This document shows, piece by piece, positions 8,830-37,266 of a stretch of 38,381 nucleotides of DNA. The notes below the pieces were generated by a model that saw only the letters and a list, made by a program, of their open reading frames with translations, did not search any database and was not told the DNA's origin. The translations under genes were made by a program, and so were the position numbers. This DNA is from a virus. Its lineage: Duplodnaviria; Heunggongvirae; Uroviricota; Caudoviricetes. Position 1 is the first letter of the stretch. Every line of letters begins with the position of its first letter. The DNA lies in IMG/VR virus record IMGVR_UViG_2909303794_000008; one strand, written 5' to 3'.

Positions 8830-10002
8830 TTACGCGCTGACCTGGCTGGCAAAATTCACCAGATACTGATCGGTGATGCGCTGGCGCAGCATCAGATTTT
8901 CAAGTGGCGGCACTGGCGTGTAGTCGTAGTCGATGGTGAGCTTCCCGGCTTTCAGCGTGTCTTTATCGTTCACCGACTCGTCCAGCCAGCAATCACCACC
9001 AATGAGATAGCCCTGACTGACCAGGCTGCGCATTTTGGCGCGGATACCTTCGATAATGTCGCGGGCCAGCGACTGGTTCAGCGGTTTGTCCACCGCCCAC
9101 ATGTGCGCTTCTGCCATCGTGTCCATCAGCACCTGCGCCGTGCGGGTGTAGTTTTCGAAGGCAAAGAGCGGATCATCGCTCAGACAGCGGGAACCCCAGA
9201 AGCGAAAACCATCCTTGCGCACAAGCGTGGTGACGTCGTTCTGGTTCAGCAGACCTGCATCGGTTGCCGGGTCCTGCAGATCCCAGAACACATCTGCAGA
9301 AATTCCGGTGACACCGTTCACGCCCACGTTGGACAGGCTTTTGTGCCATCCGGTTTGCTCGTCAATTTTGGCGCGCAGACCAAGCGCACGGGCGGTGGCA
9401 TATGCCGTTGCTTCGGCATTCAGCACAGTGTCCCAGCCAGTAAAGTCAGGCCAGATCAGCATCCCTTCGCGCTGGCTAAAGTTTTCACGGTAAGTGATCG
9501 CCTCCTGTACCGTCTTGCAGCCATATGCTGACAGGTAAGCAAATCCACGCAGGCTTTGCGCCACGCTCAGCAACTCAGTAGCTACCGCCTTGGTGTCGTG
9601 GCCTGGCACGCCGAGAATGCGCGGTTTAACGCCGAGCTGTGACTGGGCAGATAACAGGGCTTTCATACCTGTTTTTTTACCTTCAGCAGTCACTGCGCCG
9701 ATGATATTGGTCGTGGTTTCGTCTTCCGTTTCACCCTGCGGCACACGCACAACAACGGTCACGGGTTTTGCCTGGTCAGCGATGGCATCCAGCGAACGGG
9801 CCAGCGTACCGGACTCACCCGCTTTACCGCTGGCAGTAAGCACATCAGTGATCAGCACGGGTTTATTAAGAGGGAACATTTTTGCATCGGCATCATCGCC
9901 CGTGCAGACCATGCCCACGATGGCGGTGCTCACCGTAGTAATGGATCGAGTGCCTTCGTTGACTTCAACAACGCGCACCCCGTGGTGGTAATCCTGAGCC
10001 AT
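8830..10002 (-). CDS. FI: contractile tail sheath protein FI
   Basis: 390 aa; ATG at 10002 preceded by AGGAGG; P2 gpFI-like. Confidence 0.9.
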
Positions 10003-10078
10003 AGTGGCGAACCTCCTGATTGGATTAGGCTTCGCCCTATGTTGAAGTGATTGTGCCTGACAAACAGCTAAGCGCAGT

Positions 10079-10096
10079 TGTACCGTTATTCACACA
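10079..10096. promoter_or_regulatory. TGT-N12-ACA dyad (Ogr-type late promoter activator site) upstream of FI
   Basis: tgtaccgttattcacaca; centre ~85 bp upstream of the FI ATG. Confidence 0.5.
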
Positions 10097-10144
10097 AAAT
10101 GACGGTATTTGTCTGCTTTCAGGGATAATCAAAATAAAGCTGAG

Positions 10145-10711
10145 TCAGGGAGATTCATTGCTCTTATTTGCCGGAAATTTTCGATAAATGGTAGAAACGC
10201 CTACATCAAAAATCAGTGCAATACGCTGTCTTGATTCTCCGGCCTCGAGTAAACGCCCAATCTGTGCCCACTGTTCGCTGGTCAACTTAGGACGGCGTCC
10301 ACCTACTCTGCCTTTAACACGAGCTGCAGCCAGCCCTGCCCTGGTACGTTCAACTATCAGTTCGCGTTCCATTTCAGCCAGGGCACCCATGACATGAAAA
10401 AAGAAACGGCCCATTGGGGTACTGGTATCAATACTGTCAGTCAGGCTTCGGAAATTCACGCCACGCTGGCGCAACTCTTCTATCAGCGTAACAAGATGCC
10501 GCATACTGCGCCCCAACCTGTCCAGCTTCCAGACAACCAGCGTGTCTCCTGCCGATAGTGTTCTGAGCAGTTTTTTCAGTCCCGGTCGGTCGGACTTCGT
10601 GCCGCTGATTTTATCCTCAAAAATCCGCTCGCATCCTGCGCACTCCAGCGCGTTACGCTGCAATTCCGTGTTCTGGTCATTTGTTGACACGCGTACATAG
10701 CCAATAAGCAT
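10145..10711 (-). CDS. serine DNA invertase (Pin/Gin/Cin/Hin family)
   Basis: MLIGYVRVSTNDQ N-terminus with catalytic Ser, resolvase core and C-terminal HTH; start set to second ATG (10711) with better spacing to the AGGGGG SD; sits 56 bp outside crossover site A. Confidence 0.9.
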   Translation of the reverse strand: MLIGYVRVSTNDQNTELQRNALECAGCERIFEDKISGTKSDRPGLKKLLRTLSAGDTLVVWKLDRLGRSMRHLVTLIEELRQRGVNFRSLTDSIDTSTPMGRFFFHVMGALAEMERELIVERTRAGLAAARVKGRVGGRRPKLTSEQWAQIGRLLEAGESRQRIALIFDVGVSTIYRKFPANKSNESP

Positions 10712-10766
10712 GAGCATCCCCCTGAATAAAAACCGGAGATGATGCCAGTTGCCCGTTATCTCTGCA

Positions 10767-10792
10767 TTTTCATAAACGTTGGTTTGGGAGAA
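10767..10792. repeat. invertase crossover site A (gix/pix-like, 26 bp)
   Basis: ttttcataaacg-tt-ggtttgggagaa; its reverse complement matches site B in 15 contiguous bp (CTTCTCCCAAACCAA). Confidence 0.7.
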
Positions 10793-11152
10793 GCGGCAAA
10801 ACGGGATGTGGGGACAGGGGAAAATCAGATACCGGATATCTCCAACTTTCCATTTACAAAAAACAATCCTCTTAATTTTGAGTTACCAGGAGGATTAATT
10901 CTGAAAGCCGGGTATGGAAAGCTGACAACGCAGTCCAGTATCTGGATTAATTTCCCTGCAGCATTCCCTAATGACTGTATTGCCGGAGGAGCTTTAAGTG
11001 CGGAAGAGAACACAAATGACTATGTATTTGCTCAAACTACATCACGCAAAGCAGGAGGATTAACTCTGGCGTTTTATCGTGGGGGCATTAGTCAGCCACC
11101 AACAGCCAATTCCAGAGAACTTTCTTTCTCGTGGTTTGCGATAGGATATTAG
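10781..11152 (+). CDS. alternative tail-fibre C-terminal variable domain (silent orientation; would fuse to H after inversion)
   Basis: the codons GGT TTG GGA GAA (GLGE) are in frame at both crossover sites, so inversion gives an in-frame H constant-variable fusion; the track ORF 10739-11152 starts outside the segment. Confidence 0.6.
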   Translation, partial: GLGEAAKRDVGTGENQIPDISNFPFTKNNPLNFELPGGLILKAGYGKLTTQSSIWINFPAAFPNDCIAGGALSAEENTNDYVFAQTTSRKAGGLTLAFYRGGISQPPTANSRELSFSWFAIGY

Positions 11153-11153
11153 A

Positions 11154-11594
11154 ATGAGAATTTTTTTCAGTGCATCAACATTGTGGTTTTATGATGAAAC
11201 TCGCAAAGAAGAATATCACAACGGTATTGGATGGCCAGATGATGCTATCGAAATATCAGATGATGAATGGAATAAATATACGCAAATTCCTCCTGATGGT
11301 TTTATATTAGGTGCCACCTCTCAGGGAAGACCTGCATGGATATTAATATCTCCGCCAGATAAAAAAATGGTTATGGATATTGCTGAAACTAAAAAACAGC
11401 AGTTAATTAGCCAGGCCAATGAATACATGAACAGTAAACAATGGCCCGGTAAAGCCGCTATTGGTCGTCTGAAAGGCGAGGAACTGGCGCAATATAATTT
11501 GTGGCTGGATTACCTGGACGCACTGGAGCTGGTTGATACCTCCAGTGCTCCAGATATTGAATGGCCTACGTCTCCGGCAGTTCAGGCCAGATGA
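11154..11594 (+). CDS. tail fibre assembly protein (alternative copy, Tfa')
   Basis: 146 aa directly after the alternative fibre end; C-terminal LDYLDA...DTSSAPDIEWP motif shared with G. Confidence 0.7.
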   Translation: MRIFFSASTLWFYDETRKEEYHNGIGWPDDAIEISDDEWNKYTQIPPDGFILGATSQGRPAWILISPPDKKMVMDIAETKKQQLISQANEYMNSKQWPGKAAIGRLKGEELAQYNLWLDYLDALELVDTSSAPDIEWPTSPAVQAR

Positions 11595-12168
11595 CATCCG
11601 GCGCTGTGCTGGTATCTGTTGCCGTCACCGCGTCAATGTAATCCAGCACAGCGTTAAGCCGGGTTGTTTCTGCCTGCGTCAGTTTACGTCCGGCCTGCAA
11701 TTTCAACTGAATCAGACTGACGGAAGCCATTGCTGCATCAATTAGTGGCTGGCGCAGTGCTTCTGCCGCGTCTACTGCGGCATTATGCTGTGCCTCAGTA
11801 TCTGTCACCCATTTCTCACCATCCCATTCATCGTATGGCGTTAACGGAGCGATAGTGGTCGTATTTTCATGATAATCACCCGGACCTGTGATTTCTTTCG
11901 ATTCTCCTGTTTCGGTGCTATAAACGATTTCACCGCGATGGTCTGGCACATATTCCCATGAGTTTAAATCCATCGAACGGCAGATAGCATAACCCGCCTT
12001 ATGTGTGCCAGGGGCATCTAAACAGGAATATGCAGGGATACCGACACCAATGGCAAGATATTCATTTGAAGTGGAAATATATTCCCGAGTTTCACCATCA
12101 TAGTTATAGACGGTAATATTCCCCGCCTTCGTGGCAATAAGCTCGCTATTTAATACGGCGTTATCCAT
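11566..12168 (-). CDS. G: tail fibre assembly protein G (active orientation)
   Basis: 200 aa directly after H (1-nt TAATG overlap); C-terminal LDYIDA...DTSTAPDVIWP motif. Confidence 0.8.
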   Translation of the reverse strand: MDNAVLNSELIATKAGNITVYNYDGETREYISTSNEYLAIGVGIPAYSCLDAPGTHKAGYAICRSMDLNSWEYVPDHRGEIVYSTETGESKEITGPGDYHENTTTIAPLTPYDEWDGEKWVTDTEAQHNAAVDAAEALRQPLIDAAMASVSLIQLKLQAGRKLTQAETTRLNAVLDYIDAVTATDTSTAPDVIWPELPET

Positions 12169-13667
12169 TATGCAGCCCTCACGATATAGTTAAATGCAAT
12201 ATTTCGTGGACGGGTTTCACTCCCGCCGGGGAGCTGAAAAGCGTTGATAATCCCACCGCTTGCCTGACTTATTCCATCCGTGTACAACCCGCCACCGGCA
12301 CTGTCGCTGAGTGCAAATGTTTTTGATGGTGAACTGTTTGAAGCTGGCCCCCAGTATTTTAATGCGAGCTTTCTGACTTCATCACTCTGAATACTCAATA
12401 AAGCACGCCCTGTATCAATGCCGCGCCCATCATCCCAGCCACGAATAAACTCACCACGTAAATCAGGCAATTTATTTGTCGGATAAGCCTTTGCCAGTTC
12501 CGGGTATTCTTCAGCAGAAAAAGCTGCACCGTTGCATTTCAGCCAGCCTGTCGGCGGAGTGGCTGAAGGCCATGGAACAGGGACACCAACAGGTAATGCC
12601 GAACCTTCTCCCAAACCAAGGTATGTGAGAAGACCAGCTACATCCTTTCCACTCAAATTAGTCAGCGTATTGTCCAGCGGTTGTTTACCTGCCAGTGCAT
12701 TAAGCATTGTCGTGGCAAAGTTTGGGTCATTCCCCAGCGCCGCCGCCAGTTCGTTCAGTGTATCCAGTGCCGCAGGTGCAGAACCTACCATTGCCGCAAT
12801 CGCCGATTTCACAAAAGCCGTAGTGGCAATCTGTGTATTGTTGACCGACTGTGCCGCAGTAGGTGCTGTTGGCGTTCCGGTGAGTGCCGGACTCGACAAC
12901 GGCGCTTTCAGTGCCAGCGCATTGTTAATGGTGGTACTGAAATTCGGATCATTGTTAATGGCTGCGGCTATTTCTTTTAGCGTGTCCAGCGTGGCTGGAG
13001 CACCATTAATAAGGGCCGTCAGTGCCGCCTGAACAAACGCGGTGGTCGCAACCTGCGTGGTGTTATTCCCTGCCGCTGGCGTTGGCGCTTTTGGTGTCCC
13101 GGTAAACGTCGGACTTTCTTTCTGTGCATACTGTGAATGCGGGTCCGGTGCGGCAAGATGTTTTGCCATCTGATCATCCACGTACACCTTCAGCTCCAGT
13201 ACCTTGTCATCCACATACTTGCGGGTTGCCAGCACTACGGCAGGGTCGATTTTCAGGGTGATATTGTCCGTGCTGCTGGTAATCAGCACCATGCGCACGG
13301 TCTGGGTACGCCCGCTGCCTTCAGCCAGTTGCGGTTTATAGCTTTCCGGGCAGTTCCCCACGGCAATCAATGCCCCTGACTCATCAAACAGGCCCACTTC
13401 ACGTATCCACCAACCGCCCTCGTTTTCAGGGATCACCTGTTCAGCAATAATCTGGCTGCTGTTCTGCGGGTCGATATAGAGCATATTCAGCGCAGCCCGG
13501 CGTTTCTCATTTACCAGTGCCGTCTGCTTTGCGTCCGGCGTCGGCAATGCTCCGCCGCCATCGCCCACCGCCATATGGGTAATTTTTAGCGGCACACCGA
13601 GCGCGGCGGCGCTGGCAAGTTTCGCCGCGCCAATATCCGTCAGCAGGGTATAAAATTTTGTGCTCAT
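12168..13667 (-). CDS. H: tail fibre protein H
   Basis: 499 aa with conserved N-terminus and repeated Ala/Thr-rich segments; crossover site B lies at codons 351-354. Confidence 0.9.
   Translation of the reverse strand: MSTKFYTLLTDIGAAKLASAAALGVPLKITHMAVGDGGGALPTPDAKQTALVNEKRRAALNMLYIDPQNSSQIIAEQVIPENEGGWWIREVGLFDESGALIAVGNCPESYKPQLAEGSGRTQTVRMVLITSSTDNITLKIDPAVVLATRKYVDDKVLELKVYVDDQMAKHLAAPDPHSQYAQKESPTFTGTPKAPTPAAGNNTTQVATTAFVQAALTALINGAPATLDTLKEIAAAINNDPNFSTTINNALALKAPLSSPALTGTPTAPTAAQSVNNTQIATTAFVKSAIAAMVGSAPAALDTLNELAAALGNDPNFATTMLNALAGKQPLDNTLTNLSGKDVAGLLTYLGLGEGSALPVGVPVPWPSATPPTGWLKCNGAAFSAEEYPELAKAYPTNKLPDLRGEFIRGWDDGRGIDTGRALLSIQSDEVRKLALKYWGPASNSSPSKTFALSDSAGGGLYTDGISQASGGIINAFQLPGGSETRPRNIAFNYIVRAA
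12606..12631. repeat. invertase crossover site B (inside H)
   Basis: ttctcccaaacc-aa-ggtatgtgagaa; inverted copy of site A; resembles gix-type half sites. Confidence 0.7.
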
Positions 13668-24953: not shown

Positions 24954-25271
24954 TTATATACCACATACAAAATTGATCTTAACGCTTTTATCAACAACAA
25001 GCAGAGAAGTGCCAACAGACTTAATAAATCCCAGTTCATACTCTTCTGAATGCGTCATTGTAATAATATGAACAGGAACAAATAAATCAAGCTCCCGCAG
25101 CTTTCGCTTCAATAATAAACCATCGACACAATCACCTATCACAAGCATATCAATATCATTTGCATCGCAAAAACTCTTTAATGCTGACCCAAATACATAT
25201 ACATCCACCATATATAAACTATGATGGATAATAACATCACAGATCGATTCAATCGTATGTTTAAAATTCAC
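24954..25271 (-). CDS. minimal nucleotidyltransferase (Pol-beta superfamily, MNT-like)
   Basis: 105 aa with the GS-X9-DID motif (VYVFGSALKSFCDANDIDMLVIG); GTG start overlapping the upstream TAG stop by 1 nt; AT-rich. Confidence 0.6.
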   Translation of the reverse strand: MNFKHTIESICDVIIHHSLYMVDVYVFGSALKSFCDANDIDMLVIGDCVDGLLLKRKLRELDLFVPVHIITMTHSEEYELGFIKSVGTSLLVVDKSVKINFVCGI

Positions 25272-25930
25272 TACCGTGAAATTCTTCGTAATAAATCACC
25301 CAACTTGTAAAGCTCCACCCCGATACTTTGAGCAGCCTCTTTTGCCTGAGTCGTCAATCGTCCATTAGGATTGGAGGAAAAAACAACATCACAATTGCCA
25401 TGCAACCCTATCGCATCTCTTACAGAACCCGCTGTCATATCATAATCATTCGCAGCGATAATAACTAAGTCCGCCAAGCCACGTCTTTTAAGTCTATATT
25501 TTTTGTTGGTTTCTCGCTCTACAGAGCTTACATGTGAATGTTGATTGAACACTCTATTTATAAACAAATGCTCTTTATCAAGATGCTCAAGCGGATTATT
25601 AGCTCTTAAAGAAGATGCAATATGCCCAAATGAACCCACTCCTATTTTCTTTTGTTCTAGTAATCTCATTGCATCACCAGAGATAAATTCAACACCTCCC
25701 TTGACTGATAGAAAATCAATTTTTTTATTGTCTAGGTATTCATTTATCTCAGGACATGTTATCCGGCCAGTATTGATTGCCCCGATCAAATAGGTGTCAC
25801 CCTGTGTAGTATTAATCACTAAAGTACCATCACCTATCACCTCTATATTTTCGACACATTTATTTTCTTGTAATTTTCCTGCCATCCATGAAATATAGCC
25901 TTCACTCGCATTTATGCTCATTGGATTCAT
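25271..25930 (-). CDS. hypothetical protein, middle gene of three-gene cargo operon
   Basis: 219 aa; ATGA overlap with the upstream gene and 1-nt overlap with the downstream gene; no domain recognised with confidence (weak Rx6H HEPN-like motif RANNPLEH). Confidence 0.5.
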   Translation of the reverse strand: MNPMSINASEGYISWMAGKLQENKCVENIEVIGDGTLVINTTQGDTYLIGAINTGRITCPEINEYLDNKKIDFLSVKGGVEFISGDAMRLLEQKKIGVGSFGHIASSLRANNPLEHLDKEHLFINRVFNQHSHVSSVERETNKKYRLKRRGLADLVIIAANDYDMTAGSVRDAIGLHGNCDVVFSSNPNGRLTTQAKEAAQSIGVELYKLGDLLRRISR

Positions 25931-26622
25931 CCTATAAATAGTTCAGATGCAGCTTCTGGAAACCTACTACCATTAGCATCGGTTAAGCCCAAATGTTTTG
26001 ATTCAAAGTCATCTATATGAACACAAAGCTTTGAAAAAACATTCTTCTCATCTTCACTCATGAGGTGATAGTTTTGTTCAACCAGTCGCTGTACTTTTCT
26101 ATTGTTGGGTAAGATATGAGATTGTACTTTTCTTAACCATACTTCTGCATTTGGATTTTCAGGGTCAACGCTGTTCTCTTGGGTTGGTCCATATGTTACA
26201 AAAATGGTATTGTTTTCTCTGAAGTATTTTTCTAACTCCTGTCTAACAGATTCTCGATTGTCATATGTTTTAACACCAAAGGTTGCATTTATTTTATCAA
26301 TATGGCCGTTTTTCCAAGAACGGATAATTTCATCAGTAAAATGTTCCTCTGCCTTATCAATTGTCGTATGGCAATTAGCACATAGAAGAATAATGTTGTC
26401 AAAATGACCTCTCTGCTCATCAGTTAGATCAGCATTGGTTCTAGGTCCATTATCAATGGCACTAAAAATGTGAGCAAGTTCTCCAATTGTTATATTTTTG
26501 TCGCCAGCATCAACAAACAAAGGTTGCAAACATTGTGGATTTTGGCAAAAGCCACCTGAGCTGGCAAAAAGCCGTCTAACTGTATTAGCGTTTGGAGAAG
26601 CTTTTCCCCTACTGCAAGCCAT
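25927..26622 (-). CDS. HNH endonuclease-domain protein
   Basis: 231 aa; CQNPQC...GELAHI...N...LLCANCH (HNH with zinc-binding cysteines); ATG at 26622 with AAGG SD. Confidence 0.65.
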   Translation of the reverse strand: MACSRGKASPNANTVRRLFASSGGFCQNPQCLQPLFVDAGDKNITIGELAHIFSAIDNGPRTNADLTDEQRGHFDNIILLCANCHTTIDKAEEHFTDEIIRSWKNGHIDKINATFGVKTYDNRESVRQELEKYFRENNTIFVTYGPTQENSVDPENPNAEVWLRKVQSHILPNNRKVQRLVEQNYHLMSEDEKNVFSKLCVHIDDFESKHLGLTDANGSRFPEAASELFIG

Positions 26623-26710: not shown

Positions 26711-26729
26711 CTCGTATCCCCGCCACGCC
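26711..26729 (-). other. putative cos (cohesive-end) site
   Basis: minus strand reads GGCGTGGCGGGGATACGAG followed by CGCGCGCTCAC; the first 13 nt match the P2/186 cohesive end as I recall it (GGCG[A/T]GGCGGGGAAAGCA[C/T]); lies in the intergenic gap between the two cargo clusters. Confidence 0.35.
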
Positions 26730-26914
26730 TGCCCGCTTTATGTAGCGGTTTTCATGCAGGCGCATGATCTACGCAAAATCCCACCAGTTCTGGCGTGCCT
26801 TAGCAAAAACGATCCGCAAACGATCATGCGATCTCATGCGGCATAGTCATGCACTTACGGGGGAAGTGAAATCCCGTAACCGAATGACCGCTTGAAAAAC
26901 AAAACTCTCGTTTT

Positions 26915-27014: not shown

Positions 27015-28907
27015 TTAATCAGTTCCCTCAGTAAAGAATTTGATTGCGCTAGTTAGTACATAGTCAATAAAAAACTTTACGTGAAAAACCTGAAAGGAGT
27101 TATTGGCTGCGTTTTGAGTGAAATCTACAGCTATCTCTTTTAGGTTAATCAACCAGTTGTATTCTTCGGTCAGTCTGGTTCTAGCATCCCCATCAGAATA
27201 ACGATTCCGCAAGCTAAATGCCAGTTTCCTCATGAGGACTGGGTCAAGTTTCCTATAGCTTTCAATGAAAACTTCAGGAGGAACCAAGTGTAAAAAAGGC
27301 ACGTTATGAAGATTTAACTGCCTATTATTAGAATGACTCAATTCAGATACAAACGATAAGTTTCCCCTTTGCAACTCATCGCTGAACTGCAACGCAAATT
27401 CCGGAATTGATTCATCAAACCGTTTCTTCTTCGCTATCTCAATATGCTCAATAATGAGTTTGAATTCATCGCTATCCCTGTCAAGAAAACCAAAGCCACG
27501 CCATGCCCTTAATTCGTTATAATGCGTTTGCGCATATTCCTTATGTATATCTTCAGCTCTAAGTCTATTATAATAATTATTTATATTCTGTTTTGTCTCA
27601 TTTATGAGATCATGAACATCATCTGTTGTTAGACCTTCTTTCGCCATGTCCAGCAAAATACTCGCGGTCATCAGGAGTTCACCTAAGGAAGTGATCTTAC
27701 CTGAAAATAGATTATCCTTGGCAATGGCGTACTGCTCATTAAGCATAGTTTCATTAAGTTCTCGATAGTTCCACAAATACTCCCATGCTTGGGCATCGGT
27801 GCTTCTAAAAAATCGCGTAATATCCAACTGAGCGAGAAGTTCACTCGTTACCTTTCCATCACAGATTAGCTCCCTCCAGTACGCACCATCCAGTAACTTC
27901 TCGGTTAATACAGGAGATGAATATTTCTCGACGATCATGTCATACTTAGTTTTGGTACGCTCTTTACCTAAAAACATACCATAATTAACATTGCTGATTG
28001 AATCGAAATCCTCGTAGTTAAGGTTCCCTCCCCGGTACTCTATCGAGAAAATTAACAACTGCTGGAAAAATACCCTCATAAAATCGTCGTTGCTGACATA
28101 TTTATTTCCCAAAAGGGAAATGATGCGTTGTACATCAAGAAAGAACTGCCTCAAGTGTCTTAGATTATTATATTTCGCCGACACATAGATGTCTTCTATG
28201 GCCTGCATATCTTCTTTAAATATATTAGCAACGTGTAAACTGCTAATTACGCCCAAAAAAACATTACAAGCACTATGTAAATCTGACGTTACTTCAAATG
28301 TTTTACCAACAAGCTTTTCTTTTGTTCTCATGTATTCGCTGCTAGATTTCTCGTCATCATTATTTATTCGCTTTTCTCTATTGATTATTTCTTCTTCATT
28401 GGCAACCAAGATCGCTTTGTATCCGTTTACTTCTACAAAGTGGTTTATATATCCAAATAAAATTGGTAAATCTATACCAGCTCTCTCGATATCATCAAAG
28501 ACCAGCACAAAACCATCTGGTTTTCTACTAAAATCGTTAAGATTAATGGTGGGAACATTGGTATTGACATCAACGTCAGATTTATTATCGCCATTGAGAT
28601 CGATCTTGAAAGTAGCCTTAAGCGTATTTTTTAGTACATTTGCACCAAAGATAAGGGCTTTGTTTGATAGGACAGGATGAAGTTGACGATAGAACTCATC
28701 TTCAATCTGCTTAATAGAGTTGACGCCATACAAACTCACTTTTAGAAATTTAAACTCTGAATTCTTCTGCTTATATTCTTCAAGAACTTGTTCAATGAAC
28801 CAAGTTTTACCTGATCCCCAAGCACCTTTAAGCATAATGGCGTATTGAGGTTCAGTTGTAAGGCTAAGGTAATATTCTATATAGTCTTTGATGTACGTAT
28901 TGTTCAT
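27015..28907 (-). CDS. KAP-family P-loop NTPase
   Basis: Walker A GAWGSGKT near the N-terminus and Walker B-like VLVFDDIER about 100 aa later; start set to ATG 28907 (the track start 28958 is TTG); AT-rich. Confidence 0.7.
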   Translation of the reverse strand: MNNTYIKDYIEYYLSLTTEPQYAIMLKGAWGSGKTWFIEQVLEEYKQKNSEFKFLKVSLYGVNSIKQIEDEFYRQLHPVLSNKALIFGANVLKNTLKATFKIDLNGDNKSDVDVNTNVPTINLNDFSRKPDGFVLVFDDIERAGIDLPILFGYINHFVEVNGYKAILVANEEEIINREKRINNDDEKSSSEYMRTKEKLVGKTFEVTSDLHSACNVFLGVISSLHVANIFKEDMQAIEDIYVSAKYNNLRHLRQFFLDVQRIISLLGNKYVSNDDFMRVFFQQLLIFSIEYRGGNLNYEDFDSISNVNYGMFLGKERTKTKYDMIVEKYSSPVLTEKLLDGAYWRELICDGKVTSELLAQLDITRFFRSTDAQAWEYLWNYRELNETMLNEQYAIAKDNLFSGKITSLGELLMTASILLDMAKEGLTTDDVHDLINETKQNINNYYNRLRAEDIHKEYAQTHYNELRAWRGFGFLDRDSDEFKLIIEHIEIAKKKRFDESIPEFALQFSDELQRGNLSFVSELSHSNNRQLNLHNVPFLHLVPPEVFIESYRKLDPVLMRKLAFSLRNRYSDGDARTRLTEEYNWLINLKEIAVDFTQNAANNSFQVFHVKFFIDYVLTSAIKFFTEGTD

Positions 28908-29221
28908 TTTTAGTCCATTTTGATAAAATACATAAACATAGATGGTAAGTAGAGCCAAAGGCCAACTATGGAAAATTCAATCGGTAGTGTACATTGTAAG
29001 GTTATTATTAGTAAATTTTATAGAAATGCCCATAATCTTACAAAATTCAGATTATCCGTTGCGAATTAGTCTGCCATTCGTTAATTAACGAAAGTTAGCA
29101 GAAGAAACGTTTGCATCTTGCACAAAGCAGACGATCATTTATCAAAATGACCTTACACCTTATTTCACTCGTTGCCCAAACTAGCCCCCATCAGAATGAA
29201 TCCTCCTGGGGGCAACGTTTC

Positions 29222-29807: not shown

Positions 29808-32222
29808 TTAATACAGGTTCCGCCACTTATCATCTTCCTGCAAACGCTGGTTCCAATAGAAGATACGCAGGCCTGCTCCTGACGGAATACTGCCGCCGCG
29901 AAGGAGTAAATCGACCTCTTTCTCGCTGCCATCAAATCCTCTGGATTTCAGTTCATAGACGAGCTGCTGTCGTTGATGGTCTGTAATTCGCTGTTTGTAG
30001 TCTCTACGTCGTTTCGGTTTCACCAGACGTAACCTTGCAGCCAGTTCCCGGCGCTCCTTTTTGTTCATACTGTGCAGGTAATCGTGCAACTCCTTGTCAT
30101 CCATGCGGGTAAAGTCCGTTCTGGGGTCCCCATCAGCTGATTTATCTTTCTCCTGTTGGTTCAAATTTTCAGCAAGGGGACAGTTATTGCCACGAGTCCA
30201 AGGGGCGCAAGCGCCCTGGTCGGCTGCCGCCTCCTGAACATCAACGGCCTTACGAACCATTTTCCACTTCACGGCATGAGTGCAGATCTTGCCCTCTGCA
30301 ATAGGTGACCAGATGCCATAAATACGAATGCCGTGATCGCCATAGGCGGTCGGCTCTTCGTTGATTTCATAAGCGGTTCTGATGAGGTGATATTTGCGGG
30401 GAACCAGTACGCCGCCCTGCTTCATGATGTAGGTGGCAAAACAACCAGCATCAGCAGCAGCCAGGATGGCATCAAGGCGTGGGTTATCCAGTACCGGCGC
30501 ACCTGCTTTTTTGTCCCCCTGTTGCCTTGCCGCCTGACCAGCCAGCAATCGCAGTTCACGGTAAGCCTGACGCCCCGGAATGCCAAAGAAGCGGAATTGC
30601 TGAACACGATGCAGAGACGCCCAGGCATTAACGTATTCAGCATTATCACGCAGGGATTTCCCCGTTTCCTTGCTGATCTCGCCAGCCAGACCACGCCCGT
30701 CAATGTTCTTACTGATGTATTTCGCGATGTAGCTTGTTGGCGTTCCTTTGCGCGGGTTAATCAACTCAGACTTAAAGCGCGGCCCAGTGTTATTGCCCAG
30801 CTCCTCGCGGTCTTCACGGATGGCAAACTTACGCAGTAATGCAGTGATGGCACGGCGGTCTTTTTTGCGCATGAAACACAACAGGTGCCAGTGAACTGTG
30901 CCGTCATGATGCGGCTCAGCCACCCGCACGCCATACCAGCGCAACCCGGCTTTGTGCATCGCCTTACGAAATGCAGCAAACATGCCGACCAGATAATCGC
31001 TGCTTTGTCTTACCGTCGCGTTTGTCCAGGTCGGGTTTGGTCTGCCGTTATTGAGCGTGGAATGGAAACGTGACGGACAGGTGATGGTGTAGAAAACGGC
31101 GCAGTCACCGCGCATTTCCGCGATAAGCTCCAGACCTTTAACACAGGCCATCATCTCATTGCGGCGATGCGCCGGGTTGCTGCTGCTGGCGTTTACCACA
31201 TCCTCCATGTCCAGCGTGTCGCCGTCTTCGTTCACCAGTTCATGAGAACGGAAAAACTCCAGCGACTTACGGCGCTGCTCACGTTTATGCATCACGGCTT
31301 CATAGCTGACATAGGGAGATGCTTTTTTGCTGACCAGGCAGACAGCACGCAACTGCTCTTCCCGCCATTCGCAACGCATCTTCCATAATTTCCGATACCA
31401 CCAGTCGGCGCACAACATACGCGCCAGCGAACCCGGAATGAGTTCATAGGGCACGGGTTTACGGCGGTTTCTTTTCCGACGGAGTTGCTCAAACGCAGGA
31501 GGGATTACATCCAGACGCAGGGTTTCCGCTGCCACCTTTTCCCATGTCTTGCGGATTTCTTCTGGCTTAACGTCATCGGTGGCATACAAATCACCACAAG
31601 CTGCATCAAGGCACATGCTCATATGCGCGGCAACAAGGGTAGACAGGCGCTTCACCTGATCCTGACTCATTTCAGGCAGGATCAGCAGGCCGTCCAGCCC
31701 TTCATGGCTTGCCATAAAGCGAAAAGAAGTGGATAGCTGACTCTCGCGTACATGCTCCAGTCGTTCCAGACATGGCTTAATCGTCTCACGCAAATAGCGG
31801 GAATAAGCCTTTGGCCTGCCCAGGCTGCTGAAGTATTCAATACGTTGCATCAGCGGCTTGCTGATATGGGAAGGCTGGGCGTTGACGTCCGCCAGAATGA
31901 CCATATCCGGATTAAAACGCTGCTGCTCATGCGCCAGCTTTGCCCGACTAATGAGCTTATCCTGCTCGATTTCGCGCTGGACAGGATCACGGGATTCATT
32001 AAAGAAATAACGCTCCCAGACCTGATCACTCAGCGCCTCACGGCGCAGCTGTTCCTGCTCGTTATCGGCAGCGTACAGAGTGATCAGGTTTGAAAGCGCA
32101 GAAACCGGCGCAACTTCCGCCGGGTCCAGATAAGGGTTAATGGCCTTTTTCGGGCTGCTCCATGAGAATGCTGCTGCGACCTCGTTAAAGCCGCTGCAGT
32201 TGTTCATATCAGCATGGCTCAT
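29808..32222 (-). CDS. A: replication initiation endonuclease A (rolling-circle Rep)
   Basis: 804 aa; HWH metal-binding motif and YIAKYISKN tyrosine motif; ATGA overlap with dam. Confidence 0.9.
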
Positions 32223-33076
32223 GCACGCACTCCGTACACGGCAGAACTATCCACGCCACGCGAAGGATCAAATCCCACCCAGCAGCGCGGCCCGGAAACA
32301 GCGATGATTTCTGTTGCTGATTTACACTCGCCAGCTGCCACACCGATGCTGCGTTTTACCTTGATATAGTGGTGAGTAAAATTGCGATACAGCGAACGAA
32401 TCAGGGATGTGTCACTGTTAGAAACAATGACCGGATGTCCTTCAGATGATCGATGTTCAAGAACGGATGCCAGGTGATACTGGTCATCTTCAGTGAAACC
32501 ATCAGTGTGATAGCCGGAAAACGTACCGTCATAAGGCGGATCGCAATACACCACATCCCCCGCCTTCAACATCGCCAGCGTTTCATCAAAGCTGGCGCAG
32601 ATAAACGTTGCCCGCTGGGCTTTTTCTGCAAATGCGCGAATTTCTTTTTCAGGGAAATACGGTTTTTTATAATTCCCGTAGGGAATGTTGAAATGTCCGC
32701 TCTTGTTATAACGACATAACCCACGGTAACCGTGACGATTGAGATACAGGAAATATACTGCTTTCATGAAATCAGTAATTTCAGATGAGTAATTAAACTC
32801 CTGCCTTATGTTGTAATAAGCCACCTCCCTGTTTGCTTCCTCAAATAAGACTCTGGCACGAGATATAAATGATTCGCAATCAGCGGCAATCTTTTTATAG
32901 AGGTTGATTAAATCAGGATTAATATCAGCAACCAGATAGCTGGGGTAATCCGTCGCCATCATCACAGCACAGGAACCCGCGAAAGGTTCAACCAGTCGCG
33001 GGCCAGCAGGAAGGTGTTTTTTCAGTTCGGACATAATGGCGGTTTTATTACCCGCCCATTTCAGGATGGTGCTCAT
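32219..33076 (-). CDS. dam: DNA adenine methyltransferase (Dam-like, GATC type)
   Basis: LKWAGNK, EPFAGS (motif I) and DPPY (motif IV); start set to ATG 33076 (ATGA overlap with the upstream gene). Confidence 0.85.
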
Positions 33077-33300
33077 ACAGCACCTCCGTTGTAATGTTTG
33101 CCTTTCAGCTCTGCGATTTCCTGGCAGGTAATGCAAAGCTGCACTCCCGGAATGGCGCGGCGTCGTGCTGGCGGAATTGGCGCTTCACATTCAATACAAA
33201 GCACGCGAGACACGCCCGGTGTTTTGGCACGGGCAGCACGAATATGGCGCTGGCGTTCTTCTTCAACGCGCTGCTGTACGAGATCCATTGCATCAGCCAT
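33073..33300 (-). CDS. TraR/DksA-family C4 zinc-finger protein
   Basis: 75 aa; CIECEAPIPPARRRAIPGVQLCITCQ. Confidence 0.6.
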   Translation of the reverse strand: MADAMDLVQQRVEEERQRHIRAARAKTPGVSRVLCIECEAPIPPARRRAIPGVQLCITCQEIAELKGKHYNGGAV

Positions 33301-33539
33301 TAGTGGATCTCCTGCGCTTCGTTCTGGATTGCTTCAGCAGTTACACGCAGCAGTTCTGCCGCTTCGACGTGGTTTAGCTGGCGGGATGTGATATGACACG
33401 CCAGGCTATCAAGGCGAGCTGCCATTGCTTCAGCCCTTGCCCGGCGTTCTTCTAGACGAGCCTCTGTCAGTAAAATATTAAGCCCTGCGTCATCCGGTCC
33501 GGTTTTAGTCGTGAGGATTTCAATATTACGCATAATCAA
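33300..33539 (-). CDS. hypothetical early-region protein
   Basis: 79-aa ORF in the B-A interval of the early operon. Confidence 0.4.
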   Translation of the reverse strand: MIMRNIEILTTKTGPDDAGLNILLTEARLEERRARAEAMAARLDSLACHITSRQLNHVEAAELLRVTAEAIQNEAQEIH

Positions 33540-33600
33540 TTCTCCTGAATTTAGATAAAGGGATGCCCGGCGGGTTTACGCCATTAATTTCATTAGTTGG

Positions 33601-33942
33601 TTAATTCGGCATGGTTAGCCGTCTGGGAAATAAGCTCACCACCGCACGAAAATGATTCATTGCTTTAATCAGCTCCCGCTTTTCGTCAGTGGTCAGCTCA
33701 TTAATGCTGATGCTATGACGTTCAGCTGGAATTTTTGCCATAAAGAATATAGCAGCCAGTGCCCGTTTATTTTGTTCATTATTGATATCCCGTGGATCAC
33801 GCATATCTTTAATAAACCGCTCAAGCTCTGACTCAATATTCAAACCAAAAACTTTCGCCCTTAACTCCGCAATATGATTAAGTCCATTCAGGCGTTCACC
33901 GGGTCTTAATGGAACAGTCGCCGCAGCGCCTTCAATAGCCAT
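33601..33942 (-). CDS. hypothetical early-region protein
   Basis: ORF with start tentatively at internal Met; overlaps the upstream gene by ~37 nt. Confidence 0.35.
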   Translation of the reverse strand: MAIEGAAATVPLRPGERLNGLNHIAELRAKVFGLNIESELERFIKDMRDPRDINNEQNKRALAAIFFMAKIPAERHSISINELTTDEKRELIKAMNHFRAVVSLFPRRLTMPN

Positions 33943-34106
33943 TTGTTCCCCCATTTTTTCGTAGATAGTTCTGCCAGCAATTCATCTTGTGAACGGCACG
34001 GATGCCAGCGTTTACCATCCTCACCCATGATCCAGCCGTGACCGTAGTGCATTGCCGGACTTTGTTTTACCAGCAGCGATGCAAATGATGGTTCTTTCGT
34101 CAGCAT
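33906..34106 (-). CDS. hypothetical early-region protein
   Basis: 66 aa from internal Met (MLTKEPSF), placed after the B stop. Confidence 0.4.
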   Translation of the reverse strand: MLTKEPSFASLLVKQSPAMHYGHGWIMGEDGKRWHPCRSQDELLAELSTKKWGNKWLLKALRRLFH

Positions 34107-34113
34107 AAGCACC

Positions 34114-34623
34114 TCACAGCAAACCGAATGAAGCACCGAGGCCAGTCACGGTATCAACTGCACTCGCCATCGCAGGATTAGCCTGTAAACGGGCCTGCAA
34201 TGAAACAGCGGCCAGCGCCATCAGTCGTGTTACAGAGTTAATGCTGCTGATAGCATCACGACGACCTGCACTGGTTTTTACATCGCCAGATACCGCACCT
34301 GCAGCAACACGCCCGATCTCTGCGGTTGCACTCATGACATAATGCGGCAGTTTCTCTTTTGCCACCTCATTAATCGGTACACATGGCAGGCAGTGAATCT
34401 GTGCCAGAAAGCCATCTACCAGCGTTGAATCTTCAGTCAGATCGGTAAGCAACCAGATTTCTGGTGCGGTTAATAAATGAGGTTGAGCTGGGTTCAGCTT
34501 GTTCCGCAGAATCTGTACATTCATGCCTGCACGTTCTGCCAGTCGCACCAGGTTGTGGCGCAGTGCGAATGCACGACAGGCTTCGTCAAAATGTGGATGT
34601 TTGGAAACTTGGTAATCAAACAT
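34114..34623 (-). CDS. B: replication protein B (helicase-loader-like)
   Basis: start set to [12 protein letters not shown], giving 169 aa; P2 gpB-like. Confidence 0.8.
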
Positions 34624-34655
34624 AGTCGACACCCCTGATGTATCCCAAAATGGAA

Positions 34656-34877
34656 CTAGTTGAATACAACATTGCAATCAGTAAGTGCATCAACGGTAAG
34701 AGCAGCAAGGTTGATCATTACCTTTTCTCTTTTCTTGTCTTTCCGAAGGCGATGGCGAGGGATGCGACCATCAGCCAGCATATCGTTGATGGTGTCGATA
34801 GAAAGACCAGTAAGTTCGCTATAACGCTCAATTGTGACGTGTGGCGTATTCAGAGTTATTGAAATGTTAGGGGTCAT
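34656..34877 (-). CDS. Apl/Cox-like excisionase/early regulator
   Basis: 73 aa from ATG 34877 with AGGAGA SD; first gene of the early operon, divergent from cI. Confidence 0.5.
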
Positions 34878-34972
34878 GATGCAACATCTCCTATTGGCTT
34901 GTGGTGAGCCTGTAGTAATCGTGACAAGTACCCAAACGGGGACAAAATTGATACTAGGATCGCAAAAGAGAT

Positions 34973-35569
34973 ATGTCAACATCAAAGTACCCAAATGAGA
35001 TCAAAATAAATCCCAATAAAGGTGGTAAGGCTGCGATTGAGCGATTAGTCGAAGCTTATGGCTTTACGACACGACAGGCTTTAGCTGATCACTTGGAAGT
35101 ATCAAAAAGCACTCTGGCGAACAGGTATTTGCGGGATACGTTTCCTGCAGACTGGATAATCCAATGTGCTCTTGAAACAGGAACCTCACTGAAATGGTTA
35201 ACCACCGGGCAAGGCCTTAAGCAAAGCTCGCTGACAGCAGCTACAGAAGAGCTTGCCAAGTTTCGCCTTACCGCAGGCAAAATGATTGAAGATGGTTCAT
35301 ATGTCTTCGATTCATCATTTCTTCCTGCAAATCTTTCATCACCAATTGTTATTCAGGATGGGCTCGTCACATACATTTGTGATCAAAAATTTTCTGAAGT
35401 ACTTGATGGGCACTGGTTAATCAACATCGACGGAACCTATTCCATTCGAAAAATCACAAAGCTTCCAAAAGGTATGATTAAAATTACAAGTACAGAGAAT
35501 AGCTTTGAATGTGCATTTTCTGATATTGAAGTAGTTGCTTGTATAAGAAGTACAATAGTTTCAAATTAA
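34973..35569 (+). CDS. cI: CI immunity repressor (phage 186 CI type)
   Basis: 198 aa; N-terminal EAYGF...LANRY...CALETG...WL.TG and C-terminal WLINIDGTYSIRKITKLP resemble 186 CI. Confidence 0.8.
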   Translation: MSTSKYPNEIKINPNKGGKAAIERLVEAYGFTTRQALADHLEVSKSTLANRYLRDTFPADWIIQCALETGTSLKWLTTGQGLKQSSLTAATEELAKFRLTAGKMIEDGSYVFDSSFLPANLSSPIVIQDGLVTYICDQKFSEVLDGHWLINIDGTYSIRKITKLPKGMIKITSTENSFECAFSDIEVVACIRSTIVSN

Positions 35570-35589: not shown

Positions 35590-37266
35590 ATGAATTCATT
35601 TTCCATCGTTATATTCTTATTAGCATTTCTCGCCCCCATTCTAGCTGTAATATTATTTAAGCAAAGCAAAAAACATAAAGCGGCTATAGATACCTTGACA
35701 GCTAACAACATAGCCCTTTCCAACCAACTGAAAGAAAATCAAGAAGAATTAGCACAGACTGTACGAGATCTATCAGAGCTTGAAGGACGAGCTGCACCAT
35801 TATGGCAATACGTAGAATTGCACAGCGCAGTGATGGAAGCAGAGAATAAGATAAAAAATGCAGACTCAATAGCCAGGCAAAAAATAGAAGAAGCCCAAAT
35901 AAAGGCTGCTAAGACAGTAAACGAAGCAAATTATCAAGCTCAGATAAAAATAAGCAACGCTAATAGCGAAGCTATAGCAATTACTAAAGACGCTCGCGAT
36001 GCACGCCTGAAAGCTAAAGAACGTCTTGATAATGCCAATAGTAAAGCAAATGAGCTGATCTCAAATGCTAATGACAATGCAGTGAAAATTATTTCCGATG
36101 CAGAAGAAAGAGCAAAAGAGATTGCTGGTTCAGCATATGAAGCTAAAGAGTTTGCAGAAAAATATGAAGCAGTTGCCAAATCAATGAAAAATAAAATTGA
36201 AGGTTATGGTGATGAATGGATCATCCCTAACCGTAGCGTTCTCGATGAATTGGCAGAAAATTATGAGTTTACAGATGCAGGCAAGGAATTACAAAAAGCC
36301 AGGGAGTTAACAAAATCATTAATAAAAACTAATAAAGCTGCTTCGTGTGATTATGTTGAACAAAACAGGCGTAATACTGCTATCAACTTTGTTTTAGATG
36401 CCTTCAATGGAAGAGTTGACAGTATTTTATCAAAAGTCAAACACAACAATTTTGGAAAACTTTCCCAAGAGATAAAAGATGCGTTTCAACTTGTAAATTA
36501 CAATGGTTCTGCCTTTAGGTCCGCAAAAATAAGTGACATCTATCTTCAAGCTCGACTCAACGAGCTAAAATGGGGTGTTGCAGTTAATGAAATTATGCTC
36601 GAAGAAAAAGAAGAGCAAAGAAGGATTAAAGAACAACTTCGTGAAGAGGAAAGAGCTCGTAGGGAGTATGAAAAAGCGATAAAAGAAGCTGAAAAAGAAG
36701 AGAAAGCTATTCAGCAAGCTATAAATAAAGCAACAAAAGAGCTTATGCTTGCAAATGAAGAACAACGCTTAGCTTTAGAGCAAAAAATAGCTGAACTACA
36801 GTTAAAATATGAAGAAGCTGAAGCTAAAAACCAACGAGCTATTTCTATGGCTCAACAAACTAGATCAGGCCACGTTTATATAATTAGTAATATTGGCTCA
36901 TTTGGCGAAGATGTATATAAAATTGGAATGACACGCCGCCTTGAACCACTTGATCGTGTTCGTGAACTCGGTGATGCTAGTGTTCCTTTTTCGTTCGATG
37001 TTCATGCGATGATTTATAGTGATGATGCACCATCATTAGAAAATCATCTGCATAAAGTCTTCAACGAAAAACAGGTCAATAAAATTAACTCACGAAAAGA
37101 GTTTTTCAACGTAAATATTAAAGAAATTAAGTCTGTTATTGAAGATATGAACATCAACGCACAATGGACAATGTTTGCGGAAGCGAAAGAATATAGAGAG
37201 TCACTGGCGATTGAGCAAGAGCGCAAAGCAGCAACTTCCGCCAACGATGAACTGCATGTTGCTTAG
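35590..37266 (+). CDS. membrane-anchored coiled-coil protein with C-terminal T5orf172 (GIY-YIG-like) domain; DUF4041-like architecture
   Basis: 558 aa; N-terminal TM helix, long coiled coils with repeated NANS/KANE motifs, C-terminal GHVYIISN...VYKIGMTRRL...ENHLH...EFF motif; AT-rich; AAAGGA SD 20 bp after the cI stop. Confidence 0.6.
   Translation: MNSFSIVIFLLAFLAPILAVILFKQSKKHKAAIDTLTANNIALSNQLKENQEELAQTVRDLSELEGRAAPLWQYVELHSAVMEAENKIKNADSIARQKIEEAQIKAAKTVNEANYQAQIKISNANSEAIAITKDARDARLKAKERLDNANSKANELISNANDNAVKIISDAEERAKEIAGSAYEAKEFAEKYEAVAKSMKNKIEGYGDEWIIPNRSVLDELAENYEFTDAGKELQKARELTKSLIKTNKAASCDYVEQNRRNTAINFVLDAFNGRVDSILSKVKHNNFGKLSQEIKDAFQLVNYNGSAFRSAKISDIYLQARLNELKWGVAVNEIMLEEKEEQRRIKEQLREEERARREYEKAIKEAEKEEKAIQQAINKATKELMLANEEQRLALEQKIAELQLKYEEAEAKNQRAISMAQQTRSGHVYIISNIGSFGEDVYKIGMTRRLEPLDRVRELGDASVPFSFDVHAMIYSDDAPSLENHLHKVFNEKQVNKINSRKEFFNVNIKEIKSVIEDMNINAQWTMFAEAKEYRESLAIEQERKAATSANDELHVA

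Follow-up and report, generated by a model that had tools for sequence, protein, structure and literature searches.

Why does a phage whose hosts all have a Dam methyltransferase already maintain one of its own, in a gene coupled to that for replication? This question is raised by the dam gene of a 186-like (Peduoviridae) prophage on IMG/VR virus record IMGVR_UViG_2909303794_000008. The whole stretch of 38,381 nt was analysed and is called the window, and all positions are in window numbering. The answer proposed here is that dam encodes an orphan methyltransferase of the Dam family, which belongs to the early lytic operon and would top up the methylation of replicating phage DNA. As a whole, this explanation is considered highly probable. 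The clade of this enzyme is very common in clinical Escherichia coli, Klebsiella, and Salmonella. Its possible relevance lies in methylation-sensitive defence systems and in the reading of GATC methylomes of induced cultures.

Identification of the dam Gene

The gene and its ribosome-binding signal were placed as follows.

32219..33076, minus strand: dam, a 285-amino-acid (aa) Dam-family N6-adenine DNA methyltransferase (open reading frame (ORF), translation, PF02086, TIGR00571, and alignment to E. coli Dam, EcoDam)
33083..33087, minus strand: GGAGG Shine-Dalgarno, 6 nt 5' of the dam ATG and within the 3' end of the TraR-like gene (read from the sequence)

The reading frame runs on the minus strand from an ATG at 33076-33074 to a TGA at 32221-32219, i.e., 286 uninterrupted codons including the stop. 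A sequence-only reading of this DNA had claimed a complete methyltransferase with the motifs EPFAGS and DPPY at 32219-33076, and the ORF was found at exactly this place, with EPFAGS occupying aa 30-35 and DPPY aa 179-182. The placement between gene A and a TraR-like gene was likewise confirmed, and stop and start codons overlap at both junctions. The TGA of the TraR-like gene (33075-33073) shares a 4-nt ATGA with the dam ATG (33076-33074), and the dam TGA (32221-32219) shares another ATGA with the ATG of gene A (32222-32220). Between the window and phage Cartapus, dam shows 23 synonymous and 11 non-synonymous codon differences with the frame intact, which suggests purifying selection.

The family was recognized by profile and sequence searches. 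The Pfam model PF02086 (D12-class N6-adenine methyltransferase) was matched with E 7.6e-77 and 258.9 bits, against a cut-off of 22, over profile positions 1-253 of 253. The NCBIfam model TIGR00571 'dam' (Dam family site-specific DNA-(adenine-N6)-methyltransferase) was matched with E 1.2e-95 and 320.2 bits, against 114.85, over positions 1-266 of 267. In pairwise alignment with the EcoDam chain, identity was 48% over 257 positions, i.e., 124/285 (44%) of the whole protein. With both scores far above the cut-offs and this identity, the claim of a Dam-type enzyme held. The S-adenosylmethionine (SAM)-binding motif I, EPFAGS, lies N-terminal to the catalytic motif IV, DPPY, which is the alpha order, and the motifs align to EcoDam E33-G37 and D181-Y184. 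In PADLOC, the best model was 'orphan methyltransferase' (oMTase, E 3.7e-112), and the best PHROG was 'DNA methyltransferase'. In a phmmer search against PDB, the E. coli Dam entries were at the top (E ~4e-75), followed by DpnM (E 4.2e-32) and T4 Dam (E 1.2e-17). Judged by these matches, the ORF is assigned as an orphan alpha-class (D12) SAM-dependent DNA adenine-N6 methyltransferase of the Dam family, in a phage clade of 186-like prophages of Enterobacterales.

Predicted GATC Specificity

The residues by which EcoDam reads its target have been described. Y119 intercalates, K9 and Y138 recognise the first base pair, L122 and P134 contact the third base pair, and N120 contacts the orphan thymine (PMC4417163). 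R124 contacts the fourth GATC base pair, and discrimination is lost in the R124A mutant (PMC4417163). In EcoDam numbering, K9, Y119, L122, R124, P134, and Y138 are all kept in the window Dam, together with DPPY. The same positions were inspected in a clade alignment of 120 homologues with 71-97% identity to the window Dam. K9, Y119, R124, P134, and Y138 were invariant in it, and L122 and DPPY were near-invariant, DPPY being intact in at least 117 of the 120 members. In the alignment to EcoDam, the phosphate-contact residues R95, R116, N126, and N132 are also retained. Because the GATC-reading residues are conserved in both the window Dam and its clade, there is strong ground to infer that the enzyme methylates the adenine of GATC. 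It would do so by base flipping, like E. coli Dam.

Early Operon and Expression of dam

Expression was considered from the genes and signals around dam.

29808..32222, minus strand: gene A, rolling-circle replication endonuclease, 804 aa (PF05840 Phage_GPA, E 7.6e-128)
33073..33300, minus strand: TraR/DksA-family C4 zinc-finger gene, 75 aa (PF01258, E 3.1e-11; TIGR02419, E 3.9e-18)
33300..34877, minus strand: upstream early lytic genes, i.e., apl/cox-like, cII, fil, DUF5347, and DUF2732 (Pfam CII, Fil, DUF5347, and DUF2732; RefSeq annotation of ECCHD184, whose block is 99.9% identical; 186 gene order)
34951..34979, minus strand: candidate early promoter of pR type, directed into the operon, TTGACA-17-TAGTAT (consensus match, 10/12; putative function)
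34973..35569, plus strand: cI, immunity repressor (PF07022 and PF16452; role taken from the phage 186 annotation)

The window carries E. coli ybjM and ybjL ahead of the prophage, which extends from a 26-bp repeat to int at the window end. This attachment direct repeat, ATGGGTTTTTTGTTGCCTGAAATTTA, is the left copy and lies at 2765-2790, directly downstream of ybjL. A near-identical prophage is found in ECCHD184, with 26-bp repeats at 4864-4889 and 40885-40910 of its locus (L003). There the second copy is 85% identical and lies 36 kb off, before rcdA.

On the minus strand, the order around dam is apl/cox-like, cII, fil, DUF5347, DUF2732, TraR/DksA-like, dam, A, a 62-aa ORF, and a DinI/Tum-like gene. 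These early genes are divergent from cI, the DUF4041 gene, and int. The TraR-like gene is the neighbour of dam in ECCHD184 and Cartapus as well, and is also present in phage 186. The order apl-cII-fil-...-DUF2732-TraR-like-[slot]-A is the layout of the pR operon in the annotated phage 186 record, and also in Cartapus. The sequence-only reading had put dam in the early operon, and this synteny supports it. The position of the candidate pR agrees with that of pR beside cI in the 186 record.

By analogy with phage 186, the cI repressor is expected to silence the early operon in the lysogen, and dam with it. A promoter scan of the dam strand from 33076 to 34950 found no promoter-like site. Since dam lies within the pR operon and no promoter-like site is nearer, its expression is expected only once CI repression is lifted. 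Transcription of the early lytic operon from the pR-type site would thus include dam, which would be silent under CI and be made with A only after induction or infection. In translation, dam would be linked to both of its neighbours, the preceding TraR-like gene and the following initiator A. In the phage 186 record, translation of A appears to need translation to the end of the preceding ORF. As the ATGA overlap resembles the phage 186 arrangement, translational coupling of dam and A is plausible by analogy.

A counterpart to tM1, the terminator of phage 186, was looked for directly within A, and none is claimed. The A genes are unalignable there, and a CCGGCG hairpin at ~32100-32125 had z = -0.13 against shuffled sequences and was unflagged by the terminator scan.

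Absence of a Restriction Partner

The neighbours of dam are the TraR-like gene and gpA, and the nearest nuclease-like gene besides A is an HNH gene, 5.6 kb off. No restriction endonuclease gene adjoining dam was found by Pfam, PADLOC, and the annotation of the neighbours, and the rest of the prophage consists of phage genes. The HNH gene belongs to the following cassette.

24954..26622, minus strand: three-gene cargo cassette between the portal gene and cos, encoding an HNH-domain protein, a 219-aa protein, and a 105-aa protein

The HNH protein (25927-26622, 231 aa) was best matched in PADLOC by PDC-M68A (E 2e-29), and CBASS-type effector models were matched also. The 219-aa protein had no family match, and the 105-aa protein is weakly nucleotidyltransferase-like. 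The site of the cassette is the insertion site of retrons Ec67 and Ec86 in related prophages (PMC6868368). ECCHD184 carries a DprA-like gene and a hypothetical gene in place of the HNH cassette, and an 11.7-kb block covering cos-dam-int is 99.9% identical between it and the window. Phage Cartapus has dam and none of the HNH cargo.

It is barely credible that dam and the HNH gene form a restriction-modification pair in which dam supplies the methylase. An HNH-domain protein is indeed encoded at this distance from dam, but gene A, the 62-aa ORF, the DinI/Tum-like gene, and a KAP NTPase gene separate the two, which are in different transcription units. The best matches of the HNH protein are defence-effector models, not type II restriction enzymes. 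Moreover, the cassette is absent from ECCHD184 and Cartapus, both of which keep dam. Because it varies independently of dam, the HNH gene is not regarded as the partner of dam. The claim that the methyltransferase is an orphan stands accordingly, with the HNH cassette as the sole nearby nuclease.

Proposed Role and Alternatives

The sequence-only reading had suggested protection from restriction, packaging, and regulation as roles of such enzymes, which are generic possibilities. E. coli contains a limited amount of Dam, and phages that replicate fast and lack a Dam have incompletely methylated DNA. SeqA and MutH act on hemimethylated GATC. During rapid rolling-circle replication, the scarce host Dam would be supplemented by the phage enzyme, and progeny genomes would be fully methylated at ~117 GATC sites before packaging. 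Full methylation would shield the DNA from nucleases whose GATC-containing target sites are cut when unmethylated, and would leave no hemimethylated DNA for SeqA and MutH. The ~117 sites of the prophage are at ordinary density, so there is plenty of substrate.

Several points weigh against this explanation. All known hosts already have Dam, and thus the selective benefit of a phage copy is not self-evident. The observed/expected ratio of GATC is 0.74, i.e., there is no strong avoidance or enrichment, and because this ratio is within the range of other 4-bp palindromes, the genome-wide GATC count is uninformative. The window Dam scores below the equivalog cut-off of NF008152 (chromosomal Dam, PRK10904), with 292.1 against 441 bits, so it is taken as a Dam-family paralogue of phage origin and not as the housekeeping Dam. 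In the clade, N120 is replaced by Arg in 120/120 members (codon 118 of the window dam), R137 by Asn or His (Asn in the window Dam), and G39 by Cys. Relative to EcoDam, five residues are deleted directly after DPPY. A C-terminal tail of 22 aa (32219-32290), with a semi-conserved W-x-G-x-D...G-x-D...V pattern, is absent from EcoDam. All of these clade-specific changes are near the DNA interface, and the specificity or the kinetics of the enzyme could be modulated by them.

An altered or relaxed specificity, by which the clade would methylate other sites than GATC or further sites besides it and gain broader anti-restriction cover, would draw on these same features, i.e., the invariant N120R, R137N/H, the deletion, the tail, and the score under the chromosomal Dam cut-off. 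It is nevertheless very unlikely, as all GATC base-pair discriminators of E. coli Dam (K9, L122, R124, P134, and Y138) are conserved, and N120 touches the orphan thymine and does not select sequence. T4 Dam presumably has Ser at the position of N120. A most unlikely role is that of a lysogenic-conversion factor, in which dam would be expressed in the lysogen and alter host GATC methylation, gene expression, mutation rate, or virulence. Dam overproduction does alter host phenotypes. In a Klebsiella study, it was speculated that an amplified Fels-2-like prophage with dam might affect resistance (PMC7826664). However, its stop/start overlaps tie dam into an early lytic operon that is repressed by CI, no promoter-like site was found in the scanned interval of its strand, and the host already methylates nearly all GATC sites. 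The topping-up explanation is therefore preferred to both.

GATC Sites beside cos

A further alternative concerns the packaging site.

26711..26729, minus strand: 186-type cos site GGCGTGGCGGGGATACGAG, preceded by ATAAAGCGGGCA (cohesive end, 186-type core match)

The last ~125 bp before cos (region 26711-26833, minus strand) contain GATC at 26766, 26811, 26822, and 26830, five GCATG repeats, and a hairpin. The GATC sites overlap the GCATG repeats and form the only cluster of at least four per 150 bp inside the prophage. Another GATC, at 34958, lies within the spacer of the pR-like promoter match.

The cos flank was surveyed in 120 viral contigs sharing the 186-type cos core, of which 116 had enough flank to be scored. 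In the 150 bp before the cohesive end, the mean number of GATC was 3.1 in 36 loci with dam and 1.7 in 24 loci with the TraR-like gene and A but no dam, against a background, elsewhere in these loci, of 0.33-0.53 per 150 bp. Across the 116 related contigs, the density at the flank is 3-5x background, with or without phage dam. When near-identical flanks were collapsed, the values became 2.3 (dam) and 1.4 (no dam), a comparison confounded by relatedness. Lineages that lack dam also have the most conserved GATC pair (-96, -85), and no GATC is present at the homologous place in phage 186. The enrichment of GATC beside cos in this phage group seems real. This enrichment is not linked to the presence of dam in the phage, since the conserved pair is present also without dam and the difference shrinks on collapsing.

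In phage P1, Dam methylation gates pac cleavage. On this model, the main job of the window Dam might be the methylation of particular GATC sites, i.e., the cos cluster or the site in the pR region, gating terminase binding or cleavage, or early transcription. The four sites on GCATG repeats next to the cohesive end, the GATC-rich flank with its higher mean in loci with dam, and the site in the pR-like spacer all point this way. Such a dedicated role is still unlikely. The -96/-85 pair is present without dam and missing in phage 186, the difference between loci with and without dam is small after collapsing, and one four-site cluster in 35 kb is not significant over all positions. The host Dam could methylate the cos-flank sites anyway. 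The topping-up of methylation over the whole phage genome is thus retained as the preferred role of dam.

Variable Slot between the TraR-like Gene and A

The dam gene occupies a slot between the TraR-like gene and A. In related loci (L008, L026, L059, L101, L103, and L116), this slot is variable, and in some it is empty. Where it holds dam, the contents are dam alone, dam with a PAPS-reductase-domain protein, or dam with a 213-aa protein. Without dam, they are DUF5405 with a 276-aa protein, or DUF5405 with an ASCH/DUF3850 protein. The 276-aa protein is a relative of the 213-aa one and matches the phage 'queuine tRNA-ribosyltransferase' family (phrog_887, E 2.7e-94), to which the DpdA-type transglycosylases that modify DNA belong (TGT/DpdA-like). 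In phage 186 (locus L005, 4891-6748), the slot holds three non-essential genes, i.e., exonuclease-like, DUF5405, and PAPS-reductase-like. From these contents, genes seem to be exchanged at the slot, and some of them are of families linked to DNA modification (PAPS-reductase-like and TGT/DpdA-like). As circumstantial evidence, such gene content would suit the marking of phage DNA as a defence against host nucleases. A stronger joint proposal would be that Dam, of phage and host together, gates cos recognition or cleavage via GATC on the GCATG repeats, and that the slot is a dedicated site at which DNA-modification genes (Dam, PAPS-reductase-like, TGT/DpdA-like), tied in translation to A, are exchanged. 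That both hold together is improbable.

Comparison with Known Dam Systems

EcoDam (PDB 2G1P / 4GOL) shares with the window Dam the fold family, the motif order, the 48% identity, and the catalytic and GATC-reading residues except N120, and it is also an orphan. The window dam differs in being phage-borne and, as predicted from its setting, lytic-only. It differs further in its profile score (292 versus 441 bits), N120R, R137N, G39C, the 5-aa deletion, and the 22-aa tail. T4 Dam (PDB 1YFJ) and P1 Dmt are similar to it as orphan phage GATC methylases made in lytic growth. However, they are far more distant in sequence, the match of P1 dmt to the window Dam having E 2e-21. P1 Dmt, a fusion protein, has a known function in the cleavage of pac, and the DNA on which T4 Dam acts contains hydroxymethylcytosine. 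Further phage Dam enzymes are those of 933W and HP1. DpnM (M1.DpnII, PDB 2DPM), a Dam-family GATC methylase, is paired with the DpnII endonuclease in a restriction-modification system, whereas the window dam has no partner nuclease.

Among the closest known systems is that of retron Ec67. According to PMC7826664, the retron-Ec67 element, described in 1990, is 34 kb long, has 26-bp direct repeats, and encodes a Dam. Its nature as a prophage related to phage 186 was recognised later (Dodd & Egan 1996, as cited in PMC7826664 and PMC6868368). The window prophage is 186-related too, and the 26-bp repeats of the window and ECCHD184 match those described for this ~34-kb element (PMC7826664). It differs in being without the retron, with the HNH cassette in the cargo site between portal gene and cos instead. 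A cluster member with 96% identity to the window Dam is named 'retron EC67 DNA adenine methylase', by annotation transfer. Hsu, Inouye & Inouye 1990 (PNAS 87:9454) reportedly describe a Dam ORF of Ec67 with 285 residues, 44% identical to E. coli Dam, in an element at 19 min. We take this protein to be UniProt P21311 / M.Eco67Dam. The length of the window Dam, its identity to EcoDam (124/285 = 44%), and its position by ybjL fit these reported values. From the reported values and the transferred annotation, the window dam seems to correspond to the Dam gene in the prophage of retron Ec67.

Distribution and Previous Records

This kind of gene has been known since 1990 and is common and routinely annotated. 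By DNA similarity, dam was found in 1239/5426 complete E. coli genomes, nearly always as a single chromosomal copy. RefSeq labels it 'DNA adenine methylase' in E. coli, between 'TraR/DksA family' and 'replication endonuclease', and phage records use this label too. Phage records with dam numbered 56 by DNA and 474 by protein, and dam is ~95% identical in Peduoviridae phages of Klebsiella, Salmonella, and Escherichia. The exact protein is public as WP_101972966.1, its 90%-identity cluster contains 4038 sequences, and homologues with 70-97% identity occur across Enterobacterales. In the accessible literature, no study was found that measures the specificity of the enzyme or its effect on phage fitness. 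One Klebsiella methylome paper does not mention the prophage Dam, and one Salmonella prophage review covers the host Dam only.

Identity with M.EcoMIV of the ST131 strain EC958, reported as transcriptionally silent (PMC4659465), was considered and rejected. In the EC958 region that was retrieved, the prophage is Mu-like, and its methylase coding sequence is 765 nt. This methylase (locus L004, 31787-32551), taken as M.EcoMIV, is a different, shorter D12 methylase of ~254 aa. As it is another gene, the EC958 reverse transcription PCR (RT-PCR) data are inapplicable to the window dam. The two genes are not to be conflated when the ST131 methylome literature is read.

Other Genes and Regions of the Prophage

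Two further genes of the prophage matched defence models. The KAP-family P-loop NTPase (647 aa, 27015-28958, minus strand) matched the candidate defence model PDC-S49 (E 4e-160). Its place, the right end of the phage genome, is that of orf97 in phage 186. A 558-aa protein with DUF4041 and T5orf172/MUG113 (GIY-YIG-like) domains is encoded between cI and int (35590-37266, plus strand) and matched PD-Lambda-1 (E 4e-120).

The longest GATC-free stretch of the window is 3003 bp, at 9944-12947. It spans a recombinase/invertase gene (10145-10717) and the adjoining tail-fibre and tail-fibre-assembly segments, and this region differs from ECCHD184.

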